Positions 8,643-42,771 of a DNA stretch of 47,009 nt are shown one piece after another; positions within the stretch are counted from its first letter, which is position 1; each line of letters opens with the position of its first letter. The stretch covers positions 1-47,009 of the forward strand of contig JBBSQY010000024.1 in NCBI GenBank assembly GCA_038243585.1, in the 5' to 3' direction. The DNA comes from Candidatus Sumerlaeales bacterium. GTDB taxonomy: Bacteria > Sumerlaeota > Sumerlaeia > Sumerlaeales > Sumerlaeaceae. The notes below the pieces were generated by a model that did not search any database, had not been told where the DNA came from, and worked only from the letters and a program-made list of their open reading frames with translations. Made by a program: the position numbers and the translations under genes.

Positions 8643-8762
8643 ACCCGCCGTCCCCGCTTCCGGATTTGCTTGCGGGGCAATATTTGTGCGGTTGAATTCC
8701 GGTTATCAAACGATAAAGGAACCGACCCCTCTAAATCGCGGGTGGGGTTGCTGGATAGTTTT

Positions 8763-19151: not shown

Positions 19152-20039
19152 ATGCCTCACGCCCAAAATCGGGTATTGCGGCGGATGATTGTGCCTGCCC
19201 TTGCGGTAGCATTCGCTTGCGCGGGCACGTCCGCCCACGCCCATTTACACTGGAGCCGCGTAAACACCGTGGATTCCGATACCATCGCCCTTTACCACTT
19301 CGACGACGCCACAACTGTGGCCGCGCCACCCTCATTGCCTCTTCCGCTCGGACTTGGTTTAACATCAATCGCCGCGGGCATACCACTGTCACCGACGACC
19401 GACACCCCCGGTGCCATTTTCACCCCCCAGGCGCTTGCCCTGCCGACTGCTCAGACCCTCCGCAGCACTGATACCATATCCCAGCTTGCGGGCGATCTTA
19501 CCATAGAATGCTGGTTTAAATGGACACCAGAAATGACATCCTCCACGCTGGAAATCGGGCTGCAATCCGGGGCGCGGCTCGTCGTAGCTCGGGATGAGGT
19601 AACCCCGGCCAACGACCGCTTCGGTATCGCGGGCACCCATGGTTCTTATCTTTCCGCGCCCGGGTTCACCAGTTGGGTCGATGTCGGATACGAGGAGGCA
19701 TCGCTGAACGAATGGCGCCACCTGGCACTAACCATTCACTCCACAGGGATCCATTACAACCCCGCGTCGTCCCATGATGTATACTCGACAGGCACAGTGG
19801 GGCGTCTCTATCTGAACGGTCATCCCACCGGCTCTTTCCCCCATTCGTTTGACCTTGCGGGGCTAAACGTCCACGATGCTTCGCGCGTAACGGTGGTCAT
19901 GCGCGGCGGGGAAATGGTTATTGATGAGCTGGCGGTCTGGCGGCGGGATTGGTCGGCCAACGGTGTCAATACTAACCCTTTCGCGAACGGCCGCGGTGTG
20001 GAATCCAGCGTGACCGGGTGGCTTGATTACCGTGAGTAA
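19152..20039 (+). CDS. Exported LamG/concanavalin-like jelly-roll protein with terminal VxGWxxY motif
   Basis: SD AGGAG; signal ending AHA; DTIALYHFDD, LTIECWFK, EWRHLALT, RLYLNG, IDELAVW; ends SSVTGWLDYRE. Confidence 0.8.
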   Translation: MPHAQNRVLRRMIVPALAVAFACAGTSAHAHLHWSRVNTVDSDTIALYHFDDATTVAAPPSLPLPLGLGLTSIAAGIPLSPTTDTPGAIFTPQALALPTAQTLRSTDTISQLAGDLTIECWFKWTPEMTSSTLEIGLQSGARLVVARDEVTPANDRFGIAGTHGSYLSAPGFTSWVDVGYEEASLNEWRHLALTIHSTGIHYNPASSHDVYSTGTVGRLYLNGHPTGSFPHSFDLAGLNVHDASRVTVVMRGGEMVIDELAVWRRDWSANGVNTNPFANGRGVESSVTGWLDYRE

Positions 20040-20070
20040 TCTCGGACGCAACAGAACGGAGGGCCGGGCG

Positions 20071-20649
20071 GTGTTGCCCGGCCCCCTTTTTCGAGCGTTT
20101 ACTTTAATCGAGCTGTTGGTGGTGGTGTTGATTCTGGCGTTGCTGGCGGCGATTGCAGTGCCGAACTTTCTGCTGGCGGGAACACGAGCGCGCGTTTCAC
20201 GAGCCACCGCGGATCAGCGGGCGCTCGCCACCGCTCTGGAGTCATACGCAATCGACGCCAGCGGCCGCTATCCCGCATATGGCAATCCGCGCGACCGCGC
20301 TCTATTTGCCGGAGAGCCCATAGTGTTTGTGCCGACGCGCCTTACAACTCCGGTGGCCTACATTAAACAGTTGCCTCCCGACATTTTCCCCGGTGTCAGA
20401 TCCGGCATCGCTAACGATTATCAGGACACGTACTTTTTCATGAACGACTACGCCTGTGTCTACCTCGGAAAGACCCAACCGCAGGGTCACGTGCAGGAGC
20501 ATTACCATTCGCTGACAGGAGGCACGCGAGCCGCGCACTGGACAATCTGGAGCTATGGCCCGGATTTGAAAGACAACCACGGCACCATAATGTACGACCC
20601 CACAAACGGAACAGTTTCAAAAGGAGACCTGATGCGCTTTGGGCCGTAG
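20071..20649 (+). CDS. Prepilin-type N-terminal methylation protein (type II secretion pseudopilin, GspG-like)
   Basis: RA|FTLIELLVVVLILALLAAIAVPNF, ALESY.ID, RLTTPVAY, WSYGPD, YDPTNGTVSKGD; GTG 20071 has SD GGAGG (ORF open from 20023). Confidence 0.88.
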   Translation: MLPGPLFRAFTLIELLVVVLILALLAAIAVPNFLLAGTRARVSRATADQRALATALESYAIDASGRYPAYGNPRDRALFAGEPIVFVPTRLTTPVAYIKQLPPDIFPGVRSGIANDYQDTYFFMNDYACVYLGKTQPQGHVQEHYHSLTGGTRAAHWTIWSYGPDLKDNHGTIMYDPTNGTVSKGDLMRFGP

Positions 20650-20654
20650 ATTCA

Positions 20655-20736
20655 TGACGCAAAGCAGATTAAGATGCTTTCTGTTTTTGCTTTTCTTGCT
20701 TTTGCTGTTCTTCGCGTCCTTTCCGTCTTTGCGTCA
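20655..20736. repeat. Small palindromic repeat element or hairpin
   Basis: TGACGCAAAG ... CTTTGCGTCA 10-bp inverted repeat; right arm made of three tandem CTTyGCGT-like units. Confidence 0.45.
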
Positions 20737-20808
20737 AAATTTTTGTGCGCGAATCCCCGCCCCCGTTTTGCGTAGTTGCCACACATAATACCAGCATTGA
20801 GGATAACA

Positions 20809-22665
20809 ATGGGTTCGCTATCGGGTGAGAAACGCACCTGCTACTGTGGCGAGGTGCGCGCATCTCACATTGGGCAGGAAGTTGTATTAAAGGGTTGGGT
20901 GCATCGGCGCCGCGACCACGGCGGCGTAATATTTGTGGATCTACGCGATCGCACCGGCCTTTGCCAGGTTGTGCTCAGCCCGGAAAATTTCCCAGCGGAA
21001 GAATTCGAAAAGGCCCACGACCTGCGCGACGAATTCGTAGTGGCGGTGCGCGGCACCGTTCGCAACCGGCCCGAAGGCACGCTCAACCCCAACCTGGCCA
21101 CCGGCGAAATCGAACTCAATACTTTACAGTTCGAGATCCTGAACACCTGCCGCCCTCTGCCGTTCCGACTGGATGAATACAGCAACGTAAACGAAGACGC
21201 GCGCCTGAAACATAGATTCCTCGATCTGCGCCGTCCCGAGATGCAGAAGAATTTCATGATGCGTCACCAGCTGAACCAGATCACACGCCGCTTCCTCAGC
21301 GACAACGGTTTCCTGGAATTCGCCACGCCGATCCTGACTAAAAGCACTCCAGAAGGCGCGCGGGATTTCCTCGTGCCGTCCCGCCACACGCCAGGGGCAT
21401 TCTTCGCCCTGCCCCAGTCGCCCCAGCTTTTCAAGCAGCTCCTTATGGTGGCCGGCTACGACCGGTATTTCCAGATTGCCACCTGTTTCCGCGATGAAGA
21501 TCTGCGGGCGAACCGCCAGCCGGAGTTCACCCAGATCGATATCGAGATGAGCTTCATCACGGCGGAAGAAATTTATGAACTGATGGAAGGCCTGATCGCA
21601 TCCGTTTGGAAAGAGTGCCGCGGTATCGACGTGCCCACGCCTTTCGAGCGCATCGGATATGCAGACGCCATGATGAAATATGGCAGCGACAAGCCCGACC
21701 TACGTTTTGACCTGTCGATCACAGATATGACAGAGTTCTTCAGCGCGACCGACATCAAAGTGTTTGCGGCCACCGCCGCTAATCGTGGCGTTATACGCGC
21801 CATGCGAGTGCCCGGCGGTGCGGCCTTCAGCCGGAAGCAGTTGGATGACTATACGACTTTCGCAGGCATCTACGGCGCGAAGGGCCTGGCGTGGTTCAAG
21901 CTGAATGAGGGCGGCGAGATGCAAAGCCCGCTCGCGAAATTCCTGGACGCTGACAAGCAGGCAGCTCTAATTTCTGCAGTTGGCGGCGAGACAGGCGACA
22001 TTATTTTCGTAGTCGCAGACCGCGAAAAGGTTGTTTGTGATGCCCTTGGACAGCTCCGTCTTAAGCTCGCGGCAGACCTTGGCATAATCAAAGACGACAC
22101 CTATAAGTTCGCCTGGGTGGTAGACTTCCCCCTGTTCGAGTATGCAGAACGGGACAAGGTTTTCACTCCGTCGCATCATCCGTTTACCATGCCTATGCCG
22201 GAAGACGTTCATTTTCTGGACGAGTACAATGCCGATCCAGCCAAACACGACGCAGGCCACATGCAGGATAATCCCCTGCGCGGCGTTCGTGCCCTCGCCT
22301 ACGATCTCGCCTGCAACGGCGAAGAGCTTGGCGGCGGTTCCATTCGTATCCATACGAAGGATGTTCAGGATAAGGTGTTCCAGACCATCGGCATTTCCGG
22401 CGAAGAAGCCCGGGAGAAATTCGGTTTCCTACTGGACGCCCTGTCTTACGGTGCCCCGCCCCACGGCGGCCTCGCGTTTGGTTTCGAGCGCATGCTGATG
22501 CTTCTTCTCAACGAGAAGAGCATCCGAGAAGTCATCGCGTTTCCCAAAACCCAAAGCGGTGCCGATCTTATGGTCGATGCCCCAAGCGCCGTTGATGACG
22601 AGCAATTAAAGGAGCTCAACGTCAAAGCGGTCATTCCGGTGCCGGTGGCGGTACCGGAGGCTTAG
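20809..22665 (+). CDS. aspS: Aspartate-tRNA ligase, probably non-discriminating Asp/Asn type
   Basis: GWVHRRRDHGG, STPEGARDFLVPSR, LPQSPQLFKQ, RQPEFTQ.D.E, GGGSIRIH, GAPPHGG, FPKT. Confidence 0.97.
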   Translation: MGSLSGEKRTCYCGEVRASHIGQEVVLKGWVHRRRDHGGVIFVDLRDRTGLCQVVLSPENFPAEEFEKAHDLRDEFVVAVRGTVRNRPEGTLNPNLATGEIELNTLQFEILNTCRPLPFRLDEYSNVNEDARLKHRFLDLRRPEMQKNFMMRHQLNQITRRFLSDNGFLEFATPILTKSTPEGARDFLVPSRHTPGAFFALPQSPQLFKQLLMVAGYDRYFQIATCFRDEDLRANRQPEFTQIDIEMSFITAEEIYELMEGLIASVWKECRGIDVPTPFERIGYADAMMKYGSDKPDLRFDLSITDMTEFFSATDIKVFAATAANRGVIRAMRVPGGAAFSRKQLDDYTTFAGIYGAKGLAWFKLNEGGEMQSPLAKFLDADKQAALISAVGGETGDIIFVVADREKVVCDALGQLRLKLAADLGIIKDDTYKFAWVVDFPLFEYAERDKVFTPSHHPFTMPMPEDVHFLDEYNADPAKHDAGHMQDNPLRGVRALAYDLACNGEELGGGSIRIHTKDVQDKVFQTIGISGEEAREKFGFLLDALSYGAPPHGGLAFGFERMLMLLLNEKSIREVIAFPKTQSGADLMVDAPSAVDDEQLKELNVKAVIPVPVAVPEA

Positions 22666-22733
22666 AGGCCTGGAACCGGAAGAAGCAAAATATCTATCCT
22701 GTGATCTTCAACGATTAGGCGCTCCCAGGCGAT

Positions 22734-23840
22734 TTACCCAATAAACATGGCGTCGCCGTAGCTGTAAAAACGATAGCTTTCGGCGATGGCCTCCCCGTAA
22801 GCTGCCATGATATGCTCGTGCCCCGCAAAGGCGCTGATCATCATGAGCAGCGTGCTGCGCGGCAAATGGAAATTAGTAACCATGGCATCCACCACTTTGA
22901 ATTCGTAGCCCGGCAGGATCAGGATATTGGTAGCCTTGCGTCCTTCGGCAAATGTGTCCACCTCGGCGTCCCATGCGGATTCCAGGGTACGGACGGTGGT
23001 CGTACCCACGGCGATAATGCGTCCGCCCGCGGCGCGGGTTTCGGCTATGGCGCGCGCCGTCTCCGCCGGCACTTCATAAAATTCCGTGTGCATGGGATGA
23101 GCAGCGGGATCCTCGACTTCGACCGGCTTAAAAGTTCCTGCGCCAACGTGCAGTGTAACCCAGGCGAGCCGCGCCCCCGTTGCCGCGATTTGCTCCAGAA
23201 GCTCCTCAGTAAAATGCAGTCCGGCCGTGGGTGCTGCTATGCTGCCAAAGTCGCGGGCATAAACCGTTTGATAGCGGACAGCATCGTCGTTTAGAGGATT
23301 AGTTGTGCCTTCCCCATCCGGCAAACCATCTTCCTTACGCCGTTGAACAATATACGGCGGCAGCGGAATCTCGCCGCATTGCTCCAGAAGCGGCAAAATA
23401 TCGGCATGGAGAAACTCCAGCGTGCGTGTTCCGTCAGATCCCTCAGCCACGACACGGGCCCTAAGCCGACCCCCTGCAAAATCAATGGTCTCACCAATAC
23501 GAAACTTCTTGGCGGGACGGCAAAATGCGGTCCAGGAGGATGTTCCGGTTATCCTATCAGTTTTCTCCTCCGCGACTGTTAATGGCTGGAGCAGGAGCGC
23601 TTCCACAGCAGCACCAGTATCACAACGCACCCCTCGCAGACGCGCCTTGATCACCCGGCTGTTGTTCATCACCAGCAGATCTCCGGGGCGAAGACAACCC
23701 GTCAAATCGCTAAAGCGGCGATGCCTGATTTCTCCTGATTCGCGATTCAGAACCAACAGGCGAGAGCCATCCCGACGGGGAGCAGGATGGGTGGCAATCA
23801 GACCCCGGGGTAGGTCATATTCAAAGTCAGAAGTAAGCAT
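22734..23840 (-). CDS. queA: S-adenosylmethionine:tRNA ribosyltransferase-isomerase
   Basis: DFEYDLP..LIA, PLPPYI, YQTVYA, AAPTAGLHFT, HVGAGTF, AVGTT, TNFHLP.STL, YRFYSYGDAM. Confidence 0.96.
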   Translation of the reverse strand: MLTSDFEYDLPRGLIATHPAPRRDGSRLLVLNRESGEIRHRRFSDLTGCLRPGDLLVMNNSRVIKARLRGVRCDTGAAVEALLLQPLTVAEEKTDRITGTSSWTAFCRPAKKFRIGETIDFAGGRLRARVVAEGSDGTRTLEFLHADILPLLEQCGEIPLPPYIVQRRKEDGLPDGEGTTNPLNDDAVRYQTVYARDFGSIAAPTAGLHFTEELLEQIAATGARLAWVTLHVGAGTFKPVEVEDPAAHPMHTEFYEVPAETARAIAETRAAGGRIIAVGTTTVRTLESAWDAEVDTFAEGRKATNILILPGYEFKVVDAMVTNFHLPRSTLLMMISAFAGHEHIMAAYGEAIAESYRFYSYGDAMFIG

Positions 23841-23910
23841 GGAAACTTCAAACACCATGGCCTGATTCGACTATTCGCTATTTGCGGGTCACCTCGTGGC
23901 TGGCAAAACG

Positions 23911-23949
23911 AAAAACACGGCTGCCATCAAAGATGGCAGCCGTGTTTTT
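23911..23949. terminator. Perfect 18-bp inverted repeat terminator
   Basis: AAAAACACGGCTGCCATC-aaa-GATGGCAGCCGTGTTTTT. Confidence 0.85.
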
Positions 23950-23972
23950 AAAACCAGCTTTATCGTTTTAGA

Positions 23973-24227
23973 TTACTGGGCAGGAACCGGAGTGGCGTTG
24001 CTTTCCGGCGGCATATTTACATCAACTGTTGGGACAGTAATGGTCTTTGACGTGGTACCCACATCTATGTCCGCTGCGTTGACTTCATACTTTGGCAACT
24101 GTGTTTCGCCCTCAGTGGTAATATCAACGTCCGGAATGTTGCCTTCCTGAGTTTTATCTACAGTACAACCTGCAAATACAAACATGGAAGCCGCAGCTAC
24201 AGTAACTAGTAAAGTGTTAAACTTCAT
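23973..24227 (-). CDS. Small acidic lipoprotein
   Basis: Lipobox FAG|C; CTVDKTQEG..PDVD...QLPKYEV..ADIDVGT...VPTVDV.MP. Confidence 0.8.
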   Translation of the reverse strand: MKFNTLLVTVAAASMFVFAGCTVDKTQEGNIPDVDITTEGETQLPKYEVNAADIDVGTTSKTITVPTVDVNMPPESNATPVPAQ

Positions 24228-24285
24228 AACCAAACCCCTTCTATAGTGGTAATTTGTTAATTTGTCATACGCTGGTAAGCACTAA

Positions 24286-24301
24286 AGCGAGAGATGTGCC
24301 A
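24286..24301 (-). promoter_or_regulatory. Sigma54-type -24/-12 promoter of the small lipoprotein gene
   Basis: Minus strand TGGCACATCTCTCGCT (GG-N10-GC). Confidence 0.55.
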
Positions 24302-24530
24302 TATTTAGAAGCGATAGATAAAACCGTTGCATATTTTAAAGTCGCCGATGGAGAGGCGTCATCGATAGGCCGGAACAGGTTTCGAGACCGGAATATTTCT
24401 TTATGCCTCGTCCGCATGCTGAGATTGTAATAATTACGGTCTAGGTTCGAGAGCTACTCGCAATGCAGAATAGGTAGGCCTGTAGGCGGCCTTCGTCTGT
24501 CACTACGGGACAATCCTGATTTACGAAAAC

Positions 24531-24563
24531 GCAAAGGGCCCGGGCGTATCCACCCAGGCCCTT
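24531..24563 (-). terminator. Probable terminator of the DUF11 gene
   Basis: AAGGGCC.GGG/CCC.GGCCCTT hairpin just past the stop codon. Confidence 0.6.
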
Positions 24564-24586
24564 CTCAAGTATACTGTCTAAAGTGG

Positions 24587-27220
24587 TTAAAAAGCCACAG
24601 CGTTGTTGTTAGCCTCATTACATTCCGGCACGTTGTTGTCACCGTCGGCCACCGCGATCAGATAGCGACCAGTTGGGTTGATGCCGCTATCCAGCTTCAT
24701 TTTGAAGTTCACTTTCTTGGCTTTTTTGTTATTCTTTCCGGGGCACTTGGCTTTCATGGATTTCACGCCGAGCAGCAAGTCGGAGGAATCTACTGTCAGA
24801 TCATCCGATAGATAAAGCTTAACCACCGTACGCGGAGCGCACTCCGTGCCCAAATTGGTCACTCCGACCTTCGCCTGAACCTTGAATTGCCATTCGCCGG
24901 TCTTCTTTTTAACCTTCCCTTTACTGCGGATTTTCAGCATTTGGGCAGCCAGATCAACTGGGTCTGTGCATGGGATATTGGGAATTGGCGGCACTACGGT
25001 AGGAGGATTGGCTACCGGAGGTTCTTCGACTGGCGGCACAACCACTGGCGGTGTTTCCACGACCAATGTCATCTTTTCCGAATAGTTGTTGGCAACATCT
25101 GGATCAAACATATCAGATGATCCTGCTGAATAGCTGGAAAACTGGCCAACCTGCGTCGGTGTAACATTGACCGTCATAGTCACAGCCTCGCCAACCGCCA
25201 GCGGCACATTTGATACGCTGGCATATTTGTTGACCAAAACAGGAACGCCCTTGTTTGAGGTAATGGAATTGATTGACACTCCCCCTGGAATCAGGGACCC
25301 AAGAAAAGTCCCGTTGGTTGGGTTCGGCCCCATGTTAAGCGCCGTTACGGAAATGGAGACAGGCTGATTGAGGACGGCTGCCTGAGCGGAGCCGGTCTGT
25401 GTAACCAGAATATCCGATTCAGGACCGCCTGCCACGCTAATTGGTGTCGATACCGTGGCACTATTGTTGTCCGTATTCGATTCGAAGAGTTCATGTCTTA
25501 CCACAATGCTGTTGTTGATGTTTCCCAGTTCATCACCCACGGCGTTCGGCGAAACGCTATAAACCAAAACAAGATTGGCCGTATCTCCTGCTGCCAGATA
25601 GGGCAATGATGCCATCAGACCTTGATTGTTAAAATTCAGGCTCCATTGTCCTTCATCTTGGATGCTGTAGAATTCCACGTCACCATCTTCAATCACCAAG
25701 GGTCCCATCGGCCCGTTTAATCCCCATTGCGGATATGTAAGCTTAGCCCAAACATTGCTGAGTGTAATTGTGCTAGGCATATCATCTGGGCCGACATTTG
25801 TTATTGCCATATTATAAACCAGCAGTCCGCTCGGCTGCGCCGTAGCCGCAGACGCCGTAATGTTTGCCTGCAGATCAAAGACCGGAGGTTCGCCTGTGGT
25901 GTTCAGCGTTATCGGTTCAGTGCTATTGTTACTATAGTTTGGATCGATAGATTTGGCCGAGTCAAAGCCGATATTAGCCCACGCCGTGACTTGACCAAAA
26001 TGCTTAATCCTGAACACAAGAGTCATCGTTTCCGTTTGCCCCGGATTTAACACAGGAACACGAAATCTTGCCCCGGAATCAACCAATGAGCCACCAAGAT
26101 ATAACTCAACAGGGTCTGCCGTGGACTCAGTCGAGATATAATCAACGTTCCGATTAAACATCATGCCTGAAAAACTACAACGGACATCATAAGCAGGATC
26201 AGGTCCATTGTTAGTAACTGCTACGCGAACTACCGCGTTTTCCCCAAAAGGGATCTCAGTGCGGTCAGCCGAAATGTTAAAGCTCACGTCGGCAAGTCCC
26301 TGCTGCTCACCATCCTTTACATTAATGGCACTATAGGTCAATATTTCCGGTCGGTCCGGAATGCTCTGCTGAGCTGTTGACACCGTTTCCATTCCATACC
26401 ATCCGGCAGTAAGCAGGGTATAGGTAAATCTAAACACGATTGAGGATCCCGGAGCCATAGACTGAATTGTATAGTCAATTCCGGCGCTCTGCACACCTGA
26501 AACTGCTCCAGTCGCTACGATGTCAGTTCGCAGGTTTGTTGCAATCCCTTCAGCGAAGAGATAGTTATCTAATGTAATGGAAGTTAACTCTGCCGGTCCA
26601 GTATTTTTGAAAGTAACCTCATATATCACGTCATTGTTGACATAAGTTTCATTGCCAGAAGAAGGCTCGAAGCCGGGGAATATTGTGAATGCCGTTGATG
26701 AAACATCCCATAAAGCAACTCCTGGCCGAAGTGGTTGGCGACCTGCGATTATGTGAGCGTCGTCAGTATTATTGGCAGGATTAGAATCGGCGGTAACGTT
26801 TGACTCGATGTAAGCGTAAAAACCGGGGGACGCTTCTGCGCGAGTCAGTAGCGTTACAGTCATTGTAACCGATTCTCCCGAAGCCATAACTGGTAGTTCA
26901 ATGGTTTCCAATATGATGTCAGCAAAACCTGACATCCGTACGATTGTTCCGGTGCTGGAGGTGGCAGAGACAAATTTGTACTCGTCGAGATTCCACCACT
27001 CAAAGATCAACCGAACATCAACAGCAGCATCAGGTCCGTTGTTTGTAAATGTCGACGTAAGAACAACCTCAGACCCAACTTCAACTTGGGATTCCTTAGG
27101 TGAAATGGTTACAGACATGTCAGCGGATGCCGCGGACGGCTGCGCAGCTGTAGTAAATGGCATTATTATAACCATGAATGCCATAATGCTCAACACATAC
27201 GTTCGAAGTCGAAGCAACAT
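24587..27220 (-). CDS. Exported DUF11-repeat (Ig-like) surface protein with Pro-rich linker and basic CARDB-like C-terminal domain
   Basis: Repeated AD.S.T...TNNGPD.A...DPN..NN modules; final LYLS.D...YLIAVADGDNNVPECNEANN. ORF is open to 27385; the signal peptide fits a start at 27220. Confidence 0.82.
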   Translation of the reverse strand: MLLRLRTYVLSIMAFMVIIMPFTTAAQPSAASADMSVTISPKESQVEVGSEVVLTSTFTNNGPDAAVDVRLIFEWWNLDEYKFVSATSSTGTIVRMSGFADIILETIELPVMASGESVTMTVTLLTRAEASPGFYAYIESNVTADSNPANNTDDAHIIAGRQPLRPGVALWDVSSTAFTIFPGFEPSSGNETYVNNDVIYEVTFKNTGPAELTSITLDNYLFAEGIATNLRTDIVATGAVSGVQSAGIDYTIQSMAPGSSIVFRFTYTLLTAGWYGMETVSTAQQSIPDRPEILTYSAINVKDGEQQGLADVSFNISADRTEIPFGENAVVRVAVTNNGPDPAYDVRCSFSGMMFNRNVDYISTESTADPVELYLGGSLVDSGARFRVPVLNPGQTETMTLVFRIKHFGQVTAWANIGFDSAKSIDPNYSNNSTEPITLNTTGEPPVFDLQANITASAATAQPSGLLVYNMAITNVGPDDMPSTITLSNVWAKLTYPQWGLNGPMGPLVIEDGDVEFYSIQDEGQWSLNFNNQGLMASLPYLAAGDTANLVLVYSVSPNAVGDELGNINNSIVVRHELFESNTDNNSATVSTPISVAGGPESDILVTQTGSAQAAVLNQPVSISVTALNMGPNPTNGTFLGSLIPGGVSINSITSNKGVPVLVNKYASVSNVPLAVGEAVTMTVNVTPTQVGQFSSYSAGSSDMFDPDVANNYSEKMTLVVETPPVVVPPVEEPPVANPPTVVPPIPNIPCTDPVDLAAQMLKIRSKGKVKKKTGEWQFKVQAKVGVTNLGTECAPRTVVKLYLSDDLTVDSSDLLLGVKSMKAKCPGKNNKKAKKVNFKMKLDSGINPTGRYLIAVADGDNNVPECNEANNNAVAF

Positions 27221-27580
27221 TTCTCCAGCGCCGCGGGCTATACCTGCCTCTGTCGTTGCTCGAGTGTCACGCCCGAATTTCGATTGAATCCCGCCACCTA
27301 TCATATCTGCGCCTCTTATACTTTTAAGTTCCGTAATGTTCCGTAATGTCAAGTATAGCGCACTTAGACGAATACGGCCAAACAAATAAGGATTAGTCTA
27401 AATCCCGTTATTTGTAAATGTAAAGGTAATCTTTCGTTTATTTTTGGAGCTCACTAGCAACTTCATTTAACTGGTCGACATCCCCTGTTTTTGTTTGCCT
27501 GCATGAGTTGCCCGCTCTTGATGTACCCTCAAACAGCCGGCAACGGCTCCACAAATTTTTTACGGGATTTGACCTGAGAC

Positions 27581-28996: not shown

Positions 28997-29047
28997 ACTT
29001 CGCAACCTGCAAAACCGCACGGGTTTAATGACACCAATGGTTCTTCC

Positions 29048-30358: not shown

Positions 30359-30475
30359 CGCAGGATTCGATACGGAAACAACGTCGGGCCGCAGCAATTA
30401 ACGCATTATCAAATTCCCTATTAAAACCGTTTATACTTGCCAACACCACACTGAAAAATAGAGACTTAAATCTGT

Positions 30476-30676
30476 ATGAGACTCAGTATTTCCCACAGCC
30501 GCGAAGAAGAAACCTTGGAAGCGAAAGCGCGTTGGTTTCAATCGCTTTCATTGGAAGAAAGAATGGAATTGCTGTGCGAGTATACCGACCTTGCCCTGGA
30601 AATAAATCCTGATCTGCCAAAGCTGAAACGTGCTCAATCGATTACAGGTCGTATTCAAATCCTTACATTGCCATGA
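30476..30676 (+). CDS. Small protein, probable partner of a downstream nucleotidyltransferase (toxin-antitoxin-like module)
   Basis: 66 aa, ISH.REEET.EAKARWFQSLS.EERM.LLC..TDLAL; overlaps the start of the NTase remnant. Confidence 0.7.
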   Translation: MRLSISHSREEETLEAKARWFQSLSLEERMELLCEYTDLALEINPDLPKLKRAQSITGRIQILTLP

Positions 30677-30793
30677 CGTCCGCTATCTGGAAATGGACTG
30701 GTTTTTTCCAAAGCCGATCTGATTGCATCTAAACGAGCAGCTGGTCGCTACATTGACATTCAGGATGCAGATGCGTTAGACGCCACCTCTTAG
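30630..30793 (+). pseudogene. Internally deleted and frameshifted nucleotidyltransferase (DUF6036/AbiEii-like) remnant
   Basis: GTG frame gives MLNRLQVVFKSLHCHDVRYL; a second frame gives SKADLIASKRAAGRYIDIQDADAL*; the catalytic middle is absent. Confidence 0.65.
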
Positions 30794-30841
30794 CGTAAAA
30801 CTCATGAAGCATCATATAAACCTACAGGATGACAAACCACC

Positions 30842-34473: not shown

Positions 34474-34509
34474 GGGCCGGTTGGCTTTTGCGCCTCGCCT
34501 CGCGGATTT

Positions 34510-35838
34510 CTAATAAATCCCGAGGCCGGGACCCGTCAGACCAGTCGCCAGCACGCTGCCGCCCACCAGCTTCATCGCGTCGGGGTGCAGCCGGGCCGCA
34601 TCCTCGTTTGCCGCCGGACAAAACTGCCGGGCATTGGCTTCAAGCCCGTCCACTCCCACCCGCGCCGCCAGGGAGGCTGATTCCAGAAAAGAAACCCCGG
34701 GACACGTCAGATCCTGTACACACAGGAACAGGTCATGCGCTTTCGCGATCGCGGCCATTTGAATGCTGAATCCGAACCCCTTGCAGGTTTTCAGACAGAT
34801 GCCGTTGTATCCGTTTTCTAACGCCCGACCCAGCGCTTCCGTATCCACAAGTCCTTCGTCAATTACTACCGGCTTCAGCTTCGCCGCCTCGCCCACCTGT
34901 TCGTTTGGCGAACCGGAAAAGGCCCGCGACGTTGGTTGCTCCACAAAGGCTACCCGATTAAAGGCGCGGGGCTGATCCGCCTTCAAGCGTTTTAAAAGAT
35001 CTGCCAGCACATGCCCGCTCGGGCATTGTTCGTTGAGGTCGAGAGAGAATACCAAGCCGTTCTCTGCCCGACCCTCCCGGCCAGCCTGCTCACATACGGC
35101 AGCATCCACCGCGGCGACCCGCTGATAATCCCACTCCGGGTCTTTCCCCTGGAGTTTAATTTTAAAATGCGTAAGCCCGTCCCGCTGCATCCAGCCCTGG
35201 AGATCATCTGGAAGATCGTCTCCGGCGGATTTGGTTACTTCACCGGGCGTCAGCGGATCGAGTCCGCCCACCACATGATAGATTGCCAGCTTGTCGGACG
35301 GTTTTTCCGACAAAACCTGGTCTAGCGGCGCTAACCTGAAACCTTTTATATCACGCCCTACTCCCTCAGCGGATTCGCGTCGGAGAAGATCATAAGTGTT
35401 GGCTCCCTTGGCACGCCCCCAGGCGTCAAACAGGGCTATATCCCACGGGCTAAGCGTTACCAGCGTACACAGGTCAGGCATATGCACAGGCATCTCTACG
35501 TGGGAGGCCTGCAACTGTTTGGCCTGCGCCATGGCCGTCTCGCGCAGCAGGGCGCTCATGGCCCAAATGTCATCGGGCCCTTCAAGCCCGTCGATGGCGA
35601 CACGAAGTTGCTCCGTAAGTTGCTCCATTAATGAGAGTGAAACTTCGTAGGGAATCCCCGGATAGGACCACGCATTTCCGAGGGGCATGCTGCCTTCGCC
35701 GATCCCTTCGCCGTCCGGCGTAGTCAGGCGCAGACGAACCACCGGAACCAGAAGCGAATCTATAACCGCAGAGCCAAACTTAAACGGCGTGCGAAACGGC
35801 GCCGATAGTACCGAGAGGTTGTCGACTTTGATTTTCAT
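34510..35838 (-). CDS. Mandelate racemase/muconate lactonizing (enolase superfamily) enzyme
   Basis: RTPFKFG, DIAL.DA.G, HFKIKL (KxK), LD.NEQ, VEQP, IDE, LKTCKG, VQDL. Confidence 0.85.
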   Translation of the reverse strand: MKIKVDNLSVLSAPFRTPFKFGSAVIDSLLVPVVRLRLTTPDGEGIGEGSMPLGNAWSYPGIPYEVSLSLMEQLTEQLRVAIDGLEGPDDIWAMSALLRETAMAQAKQLQASHVEMPVHMPDLCTLVTLSPWDIALFDAWGRAKGANTYDLLRRESAEGVGRDIKGFRLAPLDQVLSEKPSDKLAIYHVVGGLDPLTPGEVTKSAGDDLPDDLQGWMQRDGLTHFKIKLQGKDPEWDYQRVAAVDAAVCEQAGREGRAENGLVFSLDLNEQCPSGHVLADLLKRLKADQPRAFNRVAFVEQPTSRAFSGSPNEQVGEAAKLKPVVIDEGLVDTEALGRALENGYNGICLKTCKGFGFSIQMAAIAKAHDLFLCVQDLTCPGVSFLESASLAARVGVDGLEANARQFCPAANEDAARLHPDAMKLVGGSVLATGLTGPGLGIY

Positions 35839-35955
35839 GGAGATCTTTCTTTCGGAGCTTCGTTAAATTTAGACCATTGCCGCTGGAATCAGCGGCTCGA
35901 TCAGAAAATGTTTAAACGTTCAACGTACTGGTGGACTGCGTGTTAAATCCTTCGG

Positions 35956-36924
35956 TTAATTGTGAAGCATTTCCCGGTGCATCCCCAGCGTATCCATCAG
36001 CCCAGCATCATGATCCTTACCTGGGTTTGGCGTGGTTAAAAGCTTTTCTCCGGCGAAGATGCTGTTGGCTCCGGCCAGGAAACAGAGCGCCTGCGTCTCA
36101 TCGCTCATTTCCATGCGCCCCGCGCTCAGCCGCACCCGCGATAGTGGCATCAGTATCCGCGCTGTGGCGATGCAGCGAACCATTTCAATTCCGTCCACAG
36201 GCTCGCGGTCGCCCAGCGGCGTCCCTTCCACCGGCACCAGCGCGTTGATCGGCACGCTTTCCGGATGCGGATTCAGATTGGCCAGTTCGCACAACAGACC
36301 GATCCGATCTTCCCGCGTTTCGCCCATGCCCAGGATCCCGCCACAGCAGACTTCTATTCCTGCGTCACGAACGTTCTGTATAGTGCGCAGGCGATCCTCA
36401 TAGGTACGCGTCGTAATAATTTCTTTGTAGTATTCCGGGCTGGTGTCGAGGTTGTGATTATAGGCCTTCAGCCCCGCCTCTTTCAGACGCTCCGCCTGCC
36501 CGGCTGACAACATCCCGAGCGTAACACAGCTCTCCATCCCCAGCCGGTTTACCCGGCGCACCATTTCAAGCACCCGTTCAAATTCTTCGCCGTCCCTCGG
36601 GCTGCGCCACGCCGCGCCCATGCAGAAGCGCGTGCTGCCCGCAGCGCGGGCCGCCTCCGCCTCCGCCGTTACTTCTTCAAGGTCGATCAGGCGCTCCGCC
36701 GGCACGCCGGTATTATATCGGGCGCTCTGGGGGCAATACTTGCAATCCTCCGGACACCCGCCGGATTTGATATTACTCAGGGTGCAATGCTGCACAGCCA
36801 GCGGGTCATTATGCTGCCGATGCACCGTCATCGCCTGAAAGATCAGTTCCGGCAGCGGAAGCTCATAAATCTCACGCACGCTATCGCGCGTTGATATCGG
36901 GAAGTTAACGGTCTCAGTACTCAC
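35956..36924 (-). CDS. bioB: Biotin synthase
   Basis: [11 protein letters not shown] radical-SAM motif, [46 protein letters not shown]. Confidence 0.97.
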
Positions 36925-37294
36925 AAACAGAAATTGTCACCGAGTGAAGGGGATGTGCAAGAGAGAAGTAGACCCGGCTTTTGGTGGCTATAGAATGTTT
37001 TCGCTTAGGATGTCGTCAACGTAACGTCTCACGTACCCTGGCGAATTGCGGAACCGAGTTCCACTCTCACCATTATTCCTCCCCGATAGGGTGCCTTTGA
37101 TAGCGTTAGCGCGGAGGGATAATGCCCAAAAAATCAACATTTTTTTGGTAAAGGTTCCTGACCTGTAAAAGCCGATAAAATATCGCATCGGAATATGAAG
37201 ATTGTCTTGCAAAACCATAAACTATTTTGTTTAGTCATTCGTCCCACTTTAGCTGGGAATTACTCACCTTCTCATCAAAGAAAGCACAGAAACC

Positions 37295-40200
37295 ATGCGA
37301 TCGCTCATTCGGGCATTTACTTTTATTGCAGTTGCGGCGTTTAGTATCCAATTTGGAACGAACTCCTTCGCGGTTCAGCCGGCCGTGAGCTTTGAGGAGG
37401 TTGTTCAGACGGCGGACCTCATATTTTCAGGACGGGTAACACACCTGGAAAATGTAATTGTTGGTGCCGCTGCCTTTACAGAGGTAACTTTTGCCGAGGT
37501 GGAAACCATCGAGGCCACTTCCAAATCTCGCCAGAAACATCAATCCGCCGTCAAACTCCGGTACGCTGGAGGACAAATCGGTGATGAAGTGCTCAGCGTT
37601 TCAGACGCTCCGCGGTTTCTTGCCGGACACAAGTATTTGATCTGCATGTTAGATGACAAGAATACCTATCTTAACCCAATTGTGGCCGGCCCACAGGGCT
37701 ATTTTGAAATCATTGAAGATGTTGCAGGCGACGCGGAATACGTCGTGAACGCGGCCGGGAAAAGCGTGCTCGGGATTACCGACAAAGGTGAGCTTACTCT
37801 AAGTGTCGGCAAGCTGGAATACGTGGGCAACGGAGTCGCGGGATATGCGCCGCCTCCTGCCGAAGCGGGTATTGAGACTCGACCTGCAGTGTCCGAGGAT
37901 GGCCGAGCGGCAGAGGTGTCGAATCTGAAGACAAAAGACTTAGTGCACCCACCTATTCTCCTCGAAGATTTCAAGCGAGCCATTCCCGCTAACGTATCCC
38001 GCAAGCGATCCGGCGAGCCACGACTTAAGCGGGGCGACGAACGCGGCGGGAAATTCTATACCATGGAAAATGGAAAGCTGGTGGGCCGTGATCTGGCAAC
38101 AACGATGACCAGAGAAACGGATTTCCAGTCGACCAACGACTTGGGGTTTGACGAATCAGAACAGCCGTCCCCGCCGTCGTCAGTTGGACCGCGAGGTCAG
38201 ACATTAGCGCCGTGTGGTTCCCATGACCTTTTTTTAATCATGGAAGATGTGCCGAATACTACGCCATGGGCCATGGAGTACAATGTCGACCAAAGCTGCA
38301 TGTCCTTGTACAACCAGTATATGGACATCTTCCGAGTCGGCATTAGTAATGGCGTTGGAAACAATTCCGAAAATGAGTTTGGTGGCTATCCGGATAGCGC
38401 CACTCTAGCCAGTCGCTACGGCATAGCCTTTAGTTGGGGCACATCGCTGGGAGTTTGTTTTACGTCTCGGATTTCCACTGCCGCCTGCGCCAAGATCATC
38501 CAATCCGACATTTACTGGAATCCCGCTTACAACTACTCAGAGGATCCAAACATCTGGTGGAACAGTAACAACATTTTCTGTATGCGCCAAATTACTGTTC
38601 ACGAACTGGGTCACGCGTGGGGCTACCAGGTCGGTGTCGCGGAACAGTACGACTACGATCAGCCGAGTGTGATGCATTCTGTATACAGTGACATTTATGA
38701 AACAGGTAAAGGCTTGCACGCGGAGGACGCCAGGCTGTTCCGCAACCTTTACAGTATCAAGACCGGCATAAAGAACATTCGAGACATAGGTGCGGAAGGT
38801 TACTATGCTCTAAATGGACTAAATAAGTCAGGCATCAACAAGCTGACCTTTGCCCGTGGAGAAGCCATGGACTTTACCAATGTCACCGTGGAAAACATGA
38901 GCAATTCCGACGTGAACGATGTAAAAATGCGATTCTACCTATCCACGAAGAGAGATTTTTCAGGTTCTGCATACCAGGTAGGGAACACATGGAGTTGGAG
39001 CACGTTTAATAAGGAATCAAGAAGCGTAGGGAACTATGCGGGGAACACCATTCCCCAGAACGTACCCCCTGGAACTTATTATGTCCTCGTTGACGCTAGT
39101 ATCAACTTCAACGGCGACGACTACAATGAAAACAACACCGGCGTATTTTCTGACCGCGTTACTATTTTCGCTCCCAGTATTGGCGTGTCTCCCCCACTTA
39201 CCAAAAACATTAATCAAGGGCAAAACGCTTCAGCCGACCTTATTTACATAGAGAATACTGTTTCAAAAAGCGGAGTCATGAACTACTCTCTTGCAGTGAG
39301 TTATGGCGGATCATCAAGTGGTTGGTTAAATATATCCCCCATGAGCGGCAGCTGCACTACAGAATATGATCCAATCAACTTAAACTTTTCGACAGCAGGC
39401 CTGTCGCCCGGAACGCATACGGCGACGATCTCCGTTTCCTCGCCGGAGGCAACTAATAGTCCCCAGACCTGTTTAATAACTGTAAATGTCGCAGCGGTTC
39501 CGACGCTGTCGCGTACCCCATCAACCATCACTCGCAATATTACAGGTGGAACGAATGCTTCGACGGATACTTTTGAGGTTTGGAATTCGGGCAATTCCAG
39601 CGCTCTATCGTACACTATTTCAGACGACGTAAGCTGGTTGAGTGTCAGCCCTTCAAGCGGAACTTCAACTGGCGCACATCAATTTCATACAATTTCCTAC
39701 AACACCAGCGGGCTTAGCCAGGGAAACTACTTTGCCACGATAACAATATCTTCTCCGGGAGCATCTAATCCATCATCAAGTATTCTTGTTTTTATGAATG
39801 TGGCGGCGCCTGTAACCAATCCGACAATTTCACGAACTCCTGCAACCTTATATCCCTATGCAGAGCAAGGGCAGAATGCGTCTTCAGAATCATTCGAAGT
39901 ATGGAATTCAGGCAATACAACCGCCCTTTCCTATAATATTTCGGACAATGTTTCTTGGCTAAGTGTTAGCCCTGGGAGCGGCATTTCGTCCGGAATTCAC
40001 CAGGTTCACCAGATCACCTACAGCACCAGCGGCCTCGCACCCGGCGGCCACACCGGCACTATAACAATTTCGGCGCCAGGGGCTACTAACCCAACTACAG
40101 TGATAGATGTAGCGTTATATGTGAACGCAAATATGACTCCTACATTGTCTGTTACCCCAACAGGAATTTTCAAATTTTTTGAGCAGGGTCAAAACGCACC

Positions 40201-40879
40201 AAATAGCACATTTAAAGTTTGGAACTCGGCCAATTCCACTCCTATGCCGTACAGCATTACTGATAATCAGCAATGGATGAGCGTTAGCCCGGCAAGTGGG
40301 ACCGCCTCATCTTCGCAACAGATACTCACTGTCACCTATGATACAGCAGGCCTTTCAGCAGGCAATTACAGCGGAACGATTACTGTAAACGCGCCTAATG
40401 CGACCAACACGTCTTCCAATATTTCTGTCAGTTTAACTGTTAACCCTTTGCCAGCCCCGCCGAATGACAATTTGGCCAACGCTATTAACCTTACAGGCGA
40501 AAATGGCACAATAACCGGGTCAAATGTTAACGCAACCCGAGAGACAAATGAACCCATTATCTTTTCAACGGCGCCAGGAGGTGCGTCCGTATGGTGGTCG
40601 TGGACAGCACCAATCACGGGTTCTGCTATTTTCGATACGTTTGGCAGCTCTTTTGATACTCTTCTTGGCGTTTATATTGGCAACAACTACCCTCTATTTT
40701 TCGTGGGCGACAACGACAACTTCGGAGGTACGACCAGTTATGTCAACTTTCAGGCAAGCATTGGGACTACTTATAAAATTGCAGTAGACGGATTTGGTGG
40801 TAGTACGGGAAACATTATCTTGAATCATGCAGTGACGCCAAACACCAGCCTCGTACCCGACTGGGCTATGTATGAGTAG
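37295..40879 (+). CDS. Large exported modular zinc-metalloprotease-like protein (prodomain, HExxH, CARDB-like domain, BACON-like repeats) with terminal VxDWxxY motif
   Basis: Signal peptide; HELGHAWG...SVMH; FYLST...PPGTYY...NENN; four W[LM]xxSP.SG repeats; PPNDN.ANA domain; ends TSLVPDWAMYE. Confidence 0.85.
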   Translation: MRSLIRAFTFIAVAAFSIQFGTNSFAVQPAVSFEEVVQTADLIFSGRVTHLENVIVGAAAFTEVTFAEVETIEATSKSRQKHQSAVKLRYAGGQIGDEVLSVSDAPRFLAGHKYLICMLDDKNTYLNPIVAGPQGYFEIIEDVAGDAEYVVNAAGKSVLGITDKGELTLSVGKLEYVGNGVAGYAPPPAEAGIETRPAVSEDGRAAEVSNLKTKDLVHPPILLEDFKRAIPANVSRKRSGEPRLKRGDERGGKFYTMENGKLVGRDLATTMTRETDFQSTNDLGFDESEQPSPPSSVGPRGQTLAPCGSHDLFLIMEDVPNTTPWAMEYNVDQSCMSLYNQYMDIFRVGISNGVGNNSENEFGGYPDSATLASRYGIAFSWGTSLGVCFTSRISTAACAKIIQSDIYWNPAYNYSEDPNIWWNSNNIFCMRQITVHELGHAWGYQVGVAEQYDYDQPSVMHSVYSDIYETGKGLHAEDARLFRNLYSIKTGIKNIRDIGAEGYYALNGLNKSGINKLTFARGEAMDFTNVTVENMSNSDVNDVKMRFYLSTKRDFSGSAYQVGNTWSWSTFNKESRSVGNYAGNTIPQNVPPGTYYVLVDASINFNGDDYNENNTGVFSDRVTIFAPSIGVSPPLTKNINQGQNASADLIYIENTVSKSGVMNYSLAVSYGGSSSGWLNISPMSGSCTTEYDPINLNFSTAGLSPGTHTATISVSSPEATNSPQTCLITVNVAAVPTLSRTPSTITRNITGGTNASTDTFEVWNSGNSSALSYTISDDVSWLSVSPSSGTSTGAHQFHTISYNTSGLSQGNYFATITISSPGASNPSSSILVFMNVAAPVTNPTISRTPATLYPYAEQGQNASSESFEVWNSGNTTALSYNISDNVSWLSVSPGSGISSGIHQVHQITYSTSGLAPGGHTGTITISAPGATNPTTVIDVALYVNANMTPTLSVTPTGIFKFFEQGQNAPNSTFKVWNSANSTPMPYSITDNQQWMSVSPASGTASSSQQILTVTYDTAGLSAGNYSGTITVNAPNATNTSSNISVSLTVNPLPAPPNDNLANAINLTGENGTITGSNVNATRETNEPIIFSTAPGGASVWWSWTAPITGSAIFDTFGSSFDTLLGVYIGNNYPLFFVGDNDNFGGTTSYVNFQASIGTTYKIAVDGFGGSTGNIILNHAVTPNTSLVPDWAMYE
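39170..40450 (+). repeat. Four tandem ~106-aa BACON-like Ig repeats within the CDS
   Basis: F[EK]VWNS...Y.I[ST]D...W.SVSP.SG.....Y.T.GL..G.....IT...P.A.N recurs about every 320 nt; the first copy is more diverged. Confidence 0.8.
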
Positions 40880-40902
40880 CTAGCACATCAAAACAAACAC
40901 TG

Positions 40903-40933
40903 GCCGGGTCGATTTACAGACCCGGCTTTTTTT
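40903..40933 (+). terminator. Intrinsic terminator
   Basis: GCCGGGTC/GACCCGGC stem followed by T7. Confidence 0.85.
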
Positions 40934-41016
40934 ATTGCTCTACACTTCACTAAGTAGCCGAACTCTCTATTCCTAATGGTTCAGCCGGTTTTATCTATGT
41001 CAGGAGAATCGTCCCA

Positions 41017-42771
41017 ATGAAAAGGGTATTCCGGTCCCCTTATTTTGCTAAGGTCATTGCACTTGTATTGTGGCTTACGATACTGGTTGTCCCTTCATAT
41101 GCCCAAACTGTGGCAAACGCCCCCTGGTTTTCCCGCCGGGTGGGAGTTGGGGTTGAGTGGAAACATTATCAGTTTGAAAACCTCTACGGCAATCGGCAAA
41201 GCATAAGCCTTGTCATCGCCGATCTTAACGCCCCCGGCGTCCAGGTGAAAATTCCGTATCTCCCGGCAACTCGACAGCGCATCAGCGCCATGATTCCGGC
41301 GCAATTTCCTAATGCGGTGGCCGGCGTGAACGGTTCATTTTTCGACACATCCGCTGGCGGCGGCGGATCCACTACATTTCTTCGTATCAACAACCAGATT
41401 ATAACTAATAACGACAATTCCGGGGAAGCTCTCCTGGGTGCCTTGACAATAGAAGCTGATGAGGACGTCCGTGTTCAAGCGAGGCCTTCCGGCGGCTGGG
41501 TCGGCGTCACCAACCGACGAGACATCCTTGTGCAGGGCCCGCTGCTTCTCCGGAACGACCTGCGTCAGCCCGCTGACTCCAGTTTCTGCACCGCCCGCCA
41601 CCCCCGAACCTTTGTTGGAATCACCATCGACAACAAGCTGATTCTCGCTACGGTCGACGGCCGCACGCCCCAGTCTGCCGGCATGACCTGCACGGAAATG
41701 CAGACGCTGATGATAGACCTGGGCTGCGACGACGCCACGAACATGGACGGGGGCGGCTCATCCACCATGTGGGTCGCGGGAGAAGCGTACAGTGGCGTCG
41801 TAAATTATCCCAGCGACAACGGCAGGTATGATCACATTGGCGAACGTTCGGTCAGCAATGGCATTGCCATTATCGCCAATCCGCCGCCGCCCGTCTCCAT
41901 CGATGCCCGGATTTTTAATACTGTCCAATCCCGGGTAATGACAGAACTAACCACCCAGGCTGTTACGGTGCGTTACACCAATATCGGCCAGACTACATGG
42001 ACCCCACAAACGGTTTCCCTGAACGTCACCCGCCCAACAACGCGGCAAAGCGTATTTCAAGACCCCACATGGGTTAGTACCATGAGACCAGCGGTTCTGA
42101 AGGAGTCCTCTGTGCCGCCCGGCGGCACTGGGACGTTTAACTTTGTCGTTCGCGCTCCAGACGTGCAAAACACTACTTCTTTTGGAGAAACCTTCGGTCT
42201 TGTTCATAGCACCCTGGGCAGCTTTGGTCCTGCGGACAACGAGCCGCGCCTGGAATTTGTGGTTTCACCGCCAGACATGCCAGCCACCGGACAGGTAATT
42301 ATCGAATCCCGCGAAGGCGGAAAAAATTACTCCTGGTATAAAGAAACCGTGGGCGCATGGGCCGACGTCAACACTAATGCCTCCGCGCCCGGTCTCACCC
42401 CCGGCATCGGCCAGCGCTACGCGTCCTCCTATCGCTCTGTGGCTGGGGCCAAGCACGCCACCTTCACTCCAAACCTGGCGAACGCAGGTCTTTATGACGT
42501 GGATATCGTATACGGGGACGCAGGCAACTTCGCCCGTGCCCCGATTACGTATGAAGTCCATCATGCCGGCGGCACTGCACGAGTTCTATTAGATCAAACC
42601 CAAAACAAAAATGGCTGGATAGCGCTTGGCCGCTATAGCCTTAAAGCAGGCGAGACCGGGTTTGTCGAGATCAACAATGATAGTATTGACGTAAGCGGAA
42701 ATTTCTACAGCACCGCAGCTCGCTTCACCCCCGTTCCTGCGGCGGCGGTCAATGAATGGAGCTTATACTAA
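41017..42771 (+). CDS. Exported phosphodiester glycosidase (NAGPA/DUF2233) with Ig-like and golvesin-like domains and terminal VxEWxxY motif
   Basis: GVNGSFF, GP.LL, RHPRT.VG, TVDGR...SAGM, A.NMDGGGSSTM, ERSVSN; ends AAAVNEWSLY; SD AGGAG. Confidence 0.88.
   Translation: MKRVFRSPYFAKVIALVLWLTILVVPSYAQTVANAPWFSRRVGVGVEWKHYQFENLYGNRQSISLVIADLNAPGVQVKIPYLPATRQRISAMIPAQFPNAVAGVNGSFFDTSAGGGGSTTFLRINNQIITNNDNSGEALLGALTIEADEDVRVQARPSGGWVGVTNRRDILVQGPLLLRNDLRQPADSSFCTARHPRTFVGITIDNKLILATVDGRTPQSAGMTCTEMQTLMIDLGCDDATNMDGGGSSTMWVAGEAYSGVVNYPSDNGRYDHIGERSVSNGIAIIANPPPPVSIDARIFNTVQSRVMTELTTQAVTVRYTNIGQTTWTPQTVSLNVTRPTTRQSVFQDPTWVSTMRPAVLKESSVPPGGTGTFNFVVRAPDVQNTTSFGETFGLVHSTLGSFGPADNEPRLEFVVSPPDMPATGQVIIESREGGKNYSWYKETVGAWADVNTNASAPGLTPGIGQRYASSYRSVAGAKHATFTPNLANAGLYDVDIVYGDAGNFARAPITYEVHHAGGTARVLLDQTQNKNGWIALGRYSLKAGETGFVEINNDSIDVSGNFYSTAARFTPVPAAAVNEWSLY

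Follow-up and report, generated by a model that had tools for sequence, protein, structure and literature searches.

The window studied here, a stretch of 47,009 nucleotides from a Candidatus Sumerlaeales bacterium, is the whole of contig C24 in a 3.43-Mb genome of 99 contigs with a G+C content of 52.5% (G000). Three of the exported proteins that it encodes are unrelated over their bodies and end in variants of one short tail, V-x-D-W-x-L-Y, which is the subject of this report and is called the tag below. The three carriers and their tails, together with a prepilin-type gene at the end of the first carrier, are as follows.

19152..20039, plus strand: P0001, an exported LamG-like protein of 295 residues with a divergent form of the tag (from the translation, a weak Laminin_G_3 match and orthologues with tag variants)
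20004..20036, plus strand: tag of P0001, SSVTGWLDYRE, in which G replaces D before W and two residues follow Y (from the translation and orthologues)
20023..20649, plus strand: GspG-like prepilin-type gene with an FTLIELL N-terminus (N_methyl match; TIGR02532 above its cut-off, GspG below)
37295..40879, plus strand: P0002, an exported protein of 1194 residues with an HELGH motif and BACON repeats, tagged (from the translation and Pfam)
40847..40876, plus strand: tag of P0002, SLVPDWAMYE, in which Y is followed by a single residue (from the translation)
41017..42771, plus strand: P0003, an exported NAGPA (phosphodiester glycosidase) protein of 584 residues with Golvesin_C, tagged (from the translation and Pfam)
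42742..42768, plus strand: tag of P0003, AAVNEWSLY, canonical and ending at the terminal Y (from the translation)

A sequence-only reading of the window had singled out these three C-termini, at the stop codons ending at 20039, 40879 and 42771, and all three are exactly as it gave them. It had also described non-homologous bodies behind Sec-type signal peptides. The bodies do differ by Pfam, and each protein, read from its sequence, starts with a basic and then a hydrophobic segment resembling a signal peptide. In P0002, which it labelled a metalloprotease, the HELGH zinc-protease motif is visible by eye in the sequence, but no Pfam protease model matches. That reading had seen the ending on none of the cytoplasmic proteins, and it is absent from all of the other 36 open reading frames called in the window, other exported proteins included. 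Among the untagged exported products are a SpoIID-Golvesin_C protein (4244-5350, minus strand) and a GH43 protein (8670-9803). In the former, Golvesin_C is the last element and no tag follows it.

The tail of P0001 departs from the canonical form, and its orthologues in three relatives (G061, G062 and G060) end in VAEWSLY (canonical; G062), VKQWRMYDD and VDNWLDYR. Judged from these sequences, P0001 is a divergent tag carrier. The longest open reading frame of the prepilin-type gene overlaps the end of P0001 by 17 nucleotides, and its true start is uncertain. A search of genome contigs found no loci related to P0003.

The tag in the proteome

Across the genome, 2693 proteins were called with a simple hexamer log-odds model trained on long open reading frames, which covered 88.8% of bases; these calls, made with our own model, are crude, and signal peptides were assigned by a loose heuristic. 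Seventy-six proteins (∼3%) carry W-x-[LIVM]-[YF] zero or one residue from the end, whereas about 1.2–1.7 would be expected. When the last 30 residues of each protein were shuffled 200 times, the mean was 1.2 and the maximum 4. The same pattern occurs 312 times genome-wide: 45 times at the very end of a protein, 31 times one residue before it and only five times at a distance of 3–9 residues. Running a regular expression over the proteome had been proposed as a check in the sequence-only reading, and the expression that it supplied matched 43 of the 2693 proteins. Its core motif was found 60 times in ∼1.02 million residues, 43 of these no more than two residues from a C-terminus, where 0.14 would be expected, and the motif is therefore far above chance. 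A motif-blind scan of residue pairs over the last seven positions ranked W at −4 with Y at −1 first (48 versus 1.04 expected); nearly all other top-ranked pairs came from the same tail, the rest being K/K pairs. One chance match is present among the tagged proteins, a cytoplasmic NAD synthase (locus L090).

Alignment of 83 tails, collected with a slightly wider rule, gave the consensus [S/T/A]-[A/S]-[V>A]-x-[D>G,N,E]-W-x-[L>I,V,M]-[Y>F]. Positions rich in Pro, Gly and Thr lie upstream, and downstream there is nothing or a single residue, mostly E, D, Q or N; ∼40% of tags have such a residue after the aromatic. One further residue is found in 12 of the 14 tags that end in F, and in 43 of the 62 that end in Y this residue is the true C-terminus, a contrast that may have to do with recognition of the chain terminus.

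The tag is under selection as a peptide and not as DNA. Val is encoded by all four of its codons, Leu by six and Tyr by both, all three stop codons are used, and no conserved column was seen in the 40 bases downstream of the tags. Such variation in synonymous codons, together with the lack of a conserved flank, excludes a repeat, a terminator or the end of a mobile element as the source of the pattern.

Enrichment for signal peptides, another check that had been suggested, proved strong: 67 of the 76 tagged proteins have a signal-peptide-like N-terminus, compared with 970 of the 2617 others (Fisher p about 1e-19), and of the nine without such a call several lie at contig ends or have uncertain starts. 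BLAST sorts the 76 proteins into 54 families, of which 42 are singletons. The description of a strictly C-terminal tag on exported, non-homologous proteins holds for the genome as well as for the window. Twelve families mix tagged and untagged paralogues, for example GH43 (two of five tagged), GHL10 (three of seven) and GSDH (glucose/sorbosone dehydrogenase; two of three), which indicates that the tail behaves as a module. Of the 74 tagged proteins encoded elsewhere in the genome, 47 have domains that Pfam could name. The enzymes include GH43, GHL10, NAGPA, S8, M12B, M23 and trypsin-like peptidases, polysaccharide deacetylase, Exo_endo_phos and Metallophos, and the binding or repeat proteins include lamin-tail (LTD), BNR, FG-GAP, Kelch, Ice_binding, Golvesin_C and DUF1501. 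This list resembles the substrates of a type II (T2SS) or type IX (T9SS) secretion system of other bacteria. Golvesin_C (PF25275) is present in 10 of the 74 and in P0003, usually beside a catalytic domain.

For a tagged Ice_binding protein of 270 residues (L150), the position that the tag occupies was compared across the 120 best homologues. In 15 of the 120 the end is the tag or a close variant of it (…DWQLFQ, …EWSIYQ, …LWRLYQ, …DDWELYD), and many end directly after the domain. Others carry, in the same slot, the T9SS domain PF18962 (three), dockerin PF00404 (three) or a PEP-CTERM-like transmembrane tail (two or three). In an AlphaFold2 model of the tagged protein, built from 30 of the homologous sequences, the mean predicted local distance difference test score (pLDDT) was 85.6, with values above 90 through the domain and below 50 for tail residues 261–270. 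The low scores of the tail in this one protein and the shared slot suggest that the tag is a flexible appendix placed where other lineages have sorting signals. Some 20 homologues (among P0051–P0121) share a different C-terminal module, …W.T…P…RFYRAFYP or …SRFYRV.QLP; some of its carriers are named Pedosphaera or Verrucomicrobiota by source, and it may be another lineage-specific tail.

Distribution across two phyla

Distribution was surveyed in species-representative genomes only, 75 from Sumerlaeota, 35 from a second phylum and 226 from other phyla, using the DNA pattern D-W-x-Φ-Y-stop (Φ, hydrophobic). This pattern undercounts tags, and TGG (Trp) can also fill its stop position. The genome of the window has 32 matches versus three for a reversed-pattern control. 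In its own family, 12 of 13 genomes have 5–32 matches, the exception being a genome with 66% completeness. Families f10, f11 and f12 and parts of f9, f13 and f15 have 5–12, and two genomes of other Sumerlaeota classes have 23 and 8. Families f2, f4, f7, f8, f14 and f16 are at the level of the control. The tag is thus patchy in Sumerlaeota and missing from about half of its families. In a 400-kb sample (276 open reading frames) of a complete, tag-poor genome (G069), the exported-looking proteins had neither the tag nor a substitute shared tail. The same genome encodes three tandem exported paralogues of ∼250 residues (G069:C1:19773-23230; L159–L160) ending in …NGNT[ST]NE[LM]N[HQ]YIEVEVWG[RK]…, an ending that is family-specific and unrelated to the tag.

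Outside these groups, 225 of the 226 genomes from other phyla were at background, with about one match each. The exception, G237, had 12 matches versus three for the control, and at all 10 loci examined in it the product is a large protein whose N-terminus resembles a signal peptide and whose last residues are V/I-x-D-W-x-[L/M]-Y. Its RpoD is identical to a protein named Candidatus Hinthialibacter antarcticus, which identifies the second phylum as Hinthialibacterota. Matches were present in 34 of the 35 genomes of that phylum (472 in total versus 71 for the control). The tag is therefore near-universal in Hinthialibacterota and shared by two small uncultured phyla. The sequence-only reading had mentioned similar endings in Sumerlaeota, and the genome does belong to that phylum, its AspRS being 86% identical to that of a Candidatus Sumerlaeales MAG. 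The description of the tag as specific to one lineage is not supported: the tag occurs in a second phylum, and it is absent from about half of the Sumerlaeota families.

Prepilin-type neighbours of tagged genes

The genome is that of a diderm: Omp85 and three secretins are present, as is a T2SS-like cluster with genes for GspE, GspF, GspH-like and GspK-like proteins, a PilM/PilN-type GspL, GspM and GspD. One gene family is clearly enriched beside tagged genes. It comprises 33 prepilin-type proteins of ∼200–250 residues with a nearly invariant N-terminus (FTLIELLIVVAIIAILAAIAVPNFLEAQTRAK…); TIGR02532 is passed, and the best named match is GspG, below its cut-off. An immediate neighbour is tagged for 10 of the 33 genes, compared with 2.0 expected and a maximum of seven in 2000 permutations. 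In several pairs the two genes are on the same strand and 13–43 nucleotides apart, or overlap as they do in the window. The pair formed by P0001 and its pilin gene is kept in three relatives belonging to two genera (G061, G062 and G060). The hint, made from the window, that a tagged gene abuts a pseudopilin gene thus holds up statistically and by conservation of the pair. When 29 paralogues were aligned and inspected by eye, the tag-adjacent pilins formed no obvious subfamily.

In each of the four genomes compared (G000, G061, G062 and G060; L191–L194), the gene immediately upstream of the one for the LamG-like protein encodes an exported protein of 164–177 residues with a Pro-rich end (…PPVPPP…). 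With the tagged LamG-like gene and the pilin gene it forms a conserved three-gene unit.

The arrangement also occurs in another class of Sumerlaeota (G001, contigs C253 and C337) and in Hinthialibacterota. At one locus of G237 (L179) the pilin gene starts 22 nucleotides after the tagged gene, and pilin-tag pairs are present on contigs C3 and C42 of G308, in one of which the pilin motif starts 11 nucleotides past the stop codon of the tagged gene. A complex prediction for a pseudopilin (P0248, residues 6–204) and the last 30 residues of P0249, the tagged protein encoded next to it, run without controls, gave no answer (score 0.00) and speaks neither for nor against an interaction.

Known signals and the reading of the tag

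No model in Pfam or NCBIfam matches the tails (Pfam on 77 tagged proteins, NCBIfam on four full proteins and 12 tails); a check for an existing model had been among the proposals of the sequence-only reading. NF053834 (ultrashort_CTERM), a 10-position NCBIfam model, had no matches genome-wide at E<=10 (16 candidates scored). A literature search, supplements being outside its scope, found no description of the tag, and motif strings such as DWxLY and WxLY returned irrelevant results only. The main texts of two Sumerlaeota genome papers (PMC8092238 and PMC10866078) contain neither "C-terminal" nor "sorting", and that of the Hinthialibacter paper (PMC9324843) contains none of "C-terminal", "secretion", "sorting" and "prepilin".

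Several known systems resemble the tag in part. Like the YLP-box, it is an ultrashort motif (∼10 residues) at the extreme C-terminus of many unrelated exported proteins and has no transmembrane segment; unlike the YLP-box, which is aromatic-Leu-Pro, it reads V-x-D-W-x-L-Y, and NF053834 is silent in this genome. It shares with the C-terminal domain (CTD) of T9SS substrates a putative role as a C-terminal address on secreted hydrolases and adhesins of diderms, and the same position in Ice_binding homologues. However, that domain (PF18962 Por_Secre_tail or TIGR04183) is folded and has ∼70–100 residues, whereas the tag has ∼9 and is predicted to be disordered; PF18962 had no match in the three window proteins (E<=0.01) or in 74 other tagged proteins (E<=1e-5).

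A many-to-one C-terminal signal on unrelated exported proteins, restricted by lineage, is also seen in the PEP-CTERM/exosortase, LPXTG/sortase and GlyGly-CTERM/rhombosortase systems. In those signals a transmembrane helix and then a basic tail come after the motif, whereas in the tag the chain stops at the aromatic (45 proteins) or one residue later (31). No motif was shared among the 38 C-termini of this genome that do have a transmembrane segment and a basic tail. The tag ends the protein, and the earlier judgement that it fits neither this class of signal nor the T9SS CTD was correct.

Two further candidates were rejected. The β-signal of outer-membrane proteins (OMPs) is the last strand of the β-barrel, with alternating hydrophobic residues and a terminal aromatic, and is recognized by BamA/BamD. 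The tag likewise places an aromatic at the C-terminus in a diderm, but its carriers are soluble enzymes and repeat proteins, V-x-D-W-x-L-Y does not alternate, and Y or F is terminal in just 45 of the 76. The WxL domain of Gram-positive bacteria (PF13731) binds the cell wall and has ∼150–200 residues with two WxL motifs; it has no Pfam match in the 77 tagged proteins at the thresholds given above for PF18962, and the tail of ∼9 residues contains a single W-x-L.

TcpF offers a parallel of another kind. As reported in PMC10120004, its disordered terminal export signal docks on TcpB, the minor pilin found at a type IV pilus tip, and the pilus extrudes TcpF through the secretin. Both cases would involve a short disordered terminal address on a Sec-exported, folded periplasmic protein (for the tag, disorder is predicted, in the model of one protein), and in both the genes for cargo and pilin are linked; the TcpF signal is read by a pilin of a type IV filament machine. 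The differences are considerable. The TcpF signal is N-terminal (after removal of the signal peptide), serves one cargo per system and is experimentally proven; the tag is C-terminal and found on ∼76 cargo proteins, and its link to pilins is a gene-neighbourhood statistic only. The tag probably belongs among C-terminal sorting signals, in a barely explored ultrashort class, and has not been described before in the literature searched.

The tail is probably a sorting or export tag of some kind. The best-supported reading is that it is an ultrashort, flexible C-terminal signal that acts after Sec transport. Its extreme C-terminal position, the aromatic end and the limit of one further, usually acidic or amide, residue suggest that the end of the chain is bound in a pocket. 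By analogy with TcpF, the reader of the tag is possibly a machine of the pseudopilin/T2SS type, a proposal that we rate slightly below an even chance. The cargo would cross the inner membrane by Sec, as the signal-peptide-like N-termini imply, and would then fold in the periplasm. A component of a T2SS-like type IV filament, most likely a GspG-like pseudopilin paralogue, would bind the exposed tail, and the apparatus would move the cargo through a secretin or display it on the surface. A more specific and rather doubtful version holds that the tail is a true linear T2SS-like signal that docks on GspG-like pseudopilins acting as adaptors, either to load a piston that works through the secretin or to tether the cargo to a short surface fibre for nutrient capture.

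Several observations weigh against a reader of this type. Classical T2SS substrates are not known to have a linear signal. Just ∼10 of ∼80 tagged genes adjoin a pilin gene, and adjacency is modest elsewhere: two immediate pairs among 23 tags in G308 (∼0.25 expected, by estimate), one of 10 in G237 and two of 23 in G001. No reader was found among the components profiled, all of which are also present in tag-less Sumerlaeota. The secretin PF00263 is found in 75 of 75 Sumerlaeota genomes, with more copies in the tag-less families. Pilin expansion, measured as 10–131 FTLIELL starts, is likewise seen in all 75. A second Omp85 does no better as a candidate, one copy being the rule almost everywhere, tag-less families included, and the N-terminal 1150 residues of a giant secretin with TPR repeats are found in 70 of the 75, again including tag-less families. 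The secretin of the T2SS-like cluster and an adjoining gene for a 222-residue protein were present in all five genomes tested, three tag-rich and two tag-poor. P0004, a membrane protein of 587 residues encoded downstream of P0003, was rejected as sporadic (nine of 75). Components common to tag-less relatives cannot explain the patchy distribution of the tag, and the expectation that a secretin or pilin expansion would co-occur with it was not borne out in the 75 genomes. The reader is either a gene outside those profiled or a general machine for which only the tag has been gained or lost.

Three features of the profiled components were recorded in passing. The secretin with TPR repeats has 1692 residues, the repeats lying in a long N-terminal extension (G000 contig C32:28553-33631; L157:10557-15632, minus strand). 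Its region 710–1150 is the part conserved in 70 of 75 Sumerlaeota genomes, in open frames of 1200–2000 residues. A second full-length Omp85 (864-residue frame) lies on a contig of ∼3 kb (G000 contig C95:392-1270), nearly all relatives having one copy, and may be a strain variant or contamination (estimated at 3.6%) and not a true paralogue. In two genomes of other Sumerlaeota classes (G001 and G074; 88% and 87% complete), secretins and the tag are present and no Omp85 (PF01103) was found at E<=1e-10; their BamA is either very divergent or missing from the bins.

A somewhat unlikely alternative is that export is general and that the tag serves to retain enzymes and binding proteins on the cell surface, held non-covalently by an OMP, lipopolysaccharide or a glycan and not by a pilin. 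This would match the role that the T9SS CTD with anionic lipopolysaccharide (A-LPS), PEP-CTERM or dockerin has elsewhere. The tail shares its slot with the anchoring signals of homologues, the cargo matches the kinds of degradative enzymes and adhesin-like repeat proteins that cells display on their surface, the aromatics W and Y would suit binding at a membrane interface or to a glycan, and no secretion machine profiled tracks the tag. Retention nevertheless leaves the excess of pilin neighbours unexplained, no candidate anchor was found, and nine residues with neither a lipid nor a transmembrane segment would probably make a weak anchor.

It is considerably less likely that the tail serves as the ligand of a periplasmic protease, tail-specific or of the HtrA type, or of a chaperone, bound through a PDZ or TPR domain and controlling the processing, activation or turnover of the protein and not its destination. 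Recognition that depends on the terminal carboxylate is typical of these domains, and an extreme C-terminal position, an aromatic end with a usually acidic or amide extra residue and predicted flexibility would all suit it. On the other hand, the tag is found selectively on hydrolases and binding proteins, its place is taken in homologues by known sorting signals, the residue past the aromatic in ∼40% of tags would be unacceptable to a strict PDZ pocket, and there is no PDZ domain in the T2SS cluster proteins scanned.

A tail without function, whether a product of chance or composition, the cap at the end of a shared domain or the trace of a conserved DNA element that overlaps the ends of genes, is extremely improbable, and chance and a domain end-cap are essentially excluded: some tagged proteins do share last domains of the Golvesin_C or DUF1349 type, and the NAD synthase is a plain chance match, but the excess over expectation is ∼45- to 60-fold in 54 unrelated families, the same last domains occur without the tail (the window gene at 4244-5350 ends at Golvesin_C), synonymous codons vary beside an unconserved flank, and the tail is disordered in the model and conserved across two phyla.

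It has long been asked how pilus-like machines select the folded proteins that they move across the outer membrane. A recognizable nine-residue tail, present on ∼3% of a proteome and found beside pseudopilin genes, would make this selection testable with peptides and reporters. Should the tail prove to be a true linear signal docking on pseudopilins, the T2SS-type substrates of two phyla would be readable from sequence, which is impossible for any T2SS studied. The tag also enlarges the group of ultrashort C-terminal tags that escape present-day domain libraries, and its patchy distribution in Sumerlaeota provides a natural experiment, from which phylogenetic profiling could identify the reader. 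For two uncultured, polymer-degrading phyla, it predicts from sequence the set of enzymes and other proteins that they export, including glycosidases, proteases, nucleases and binding proteins.

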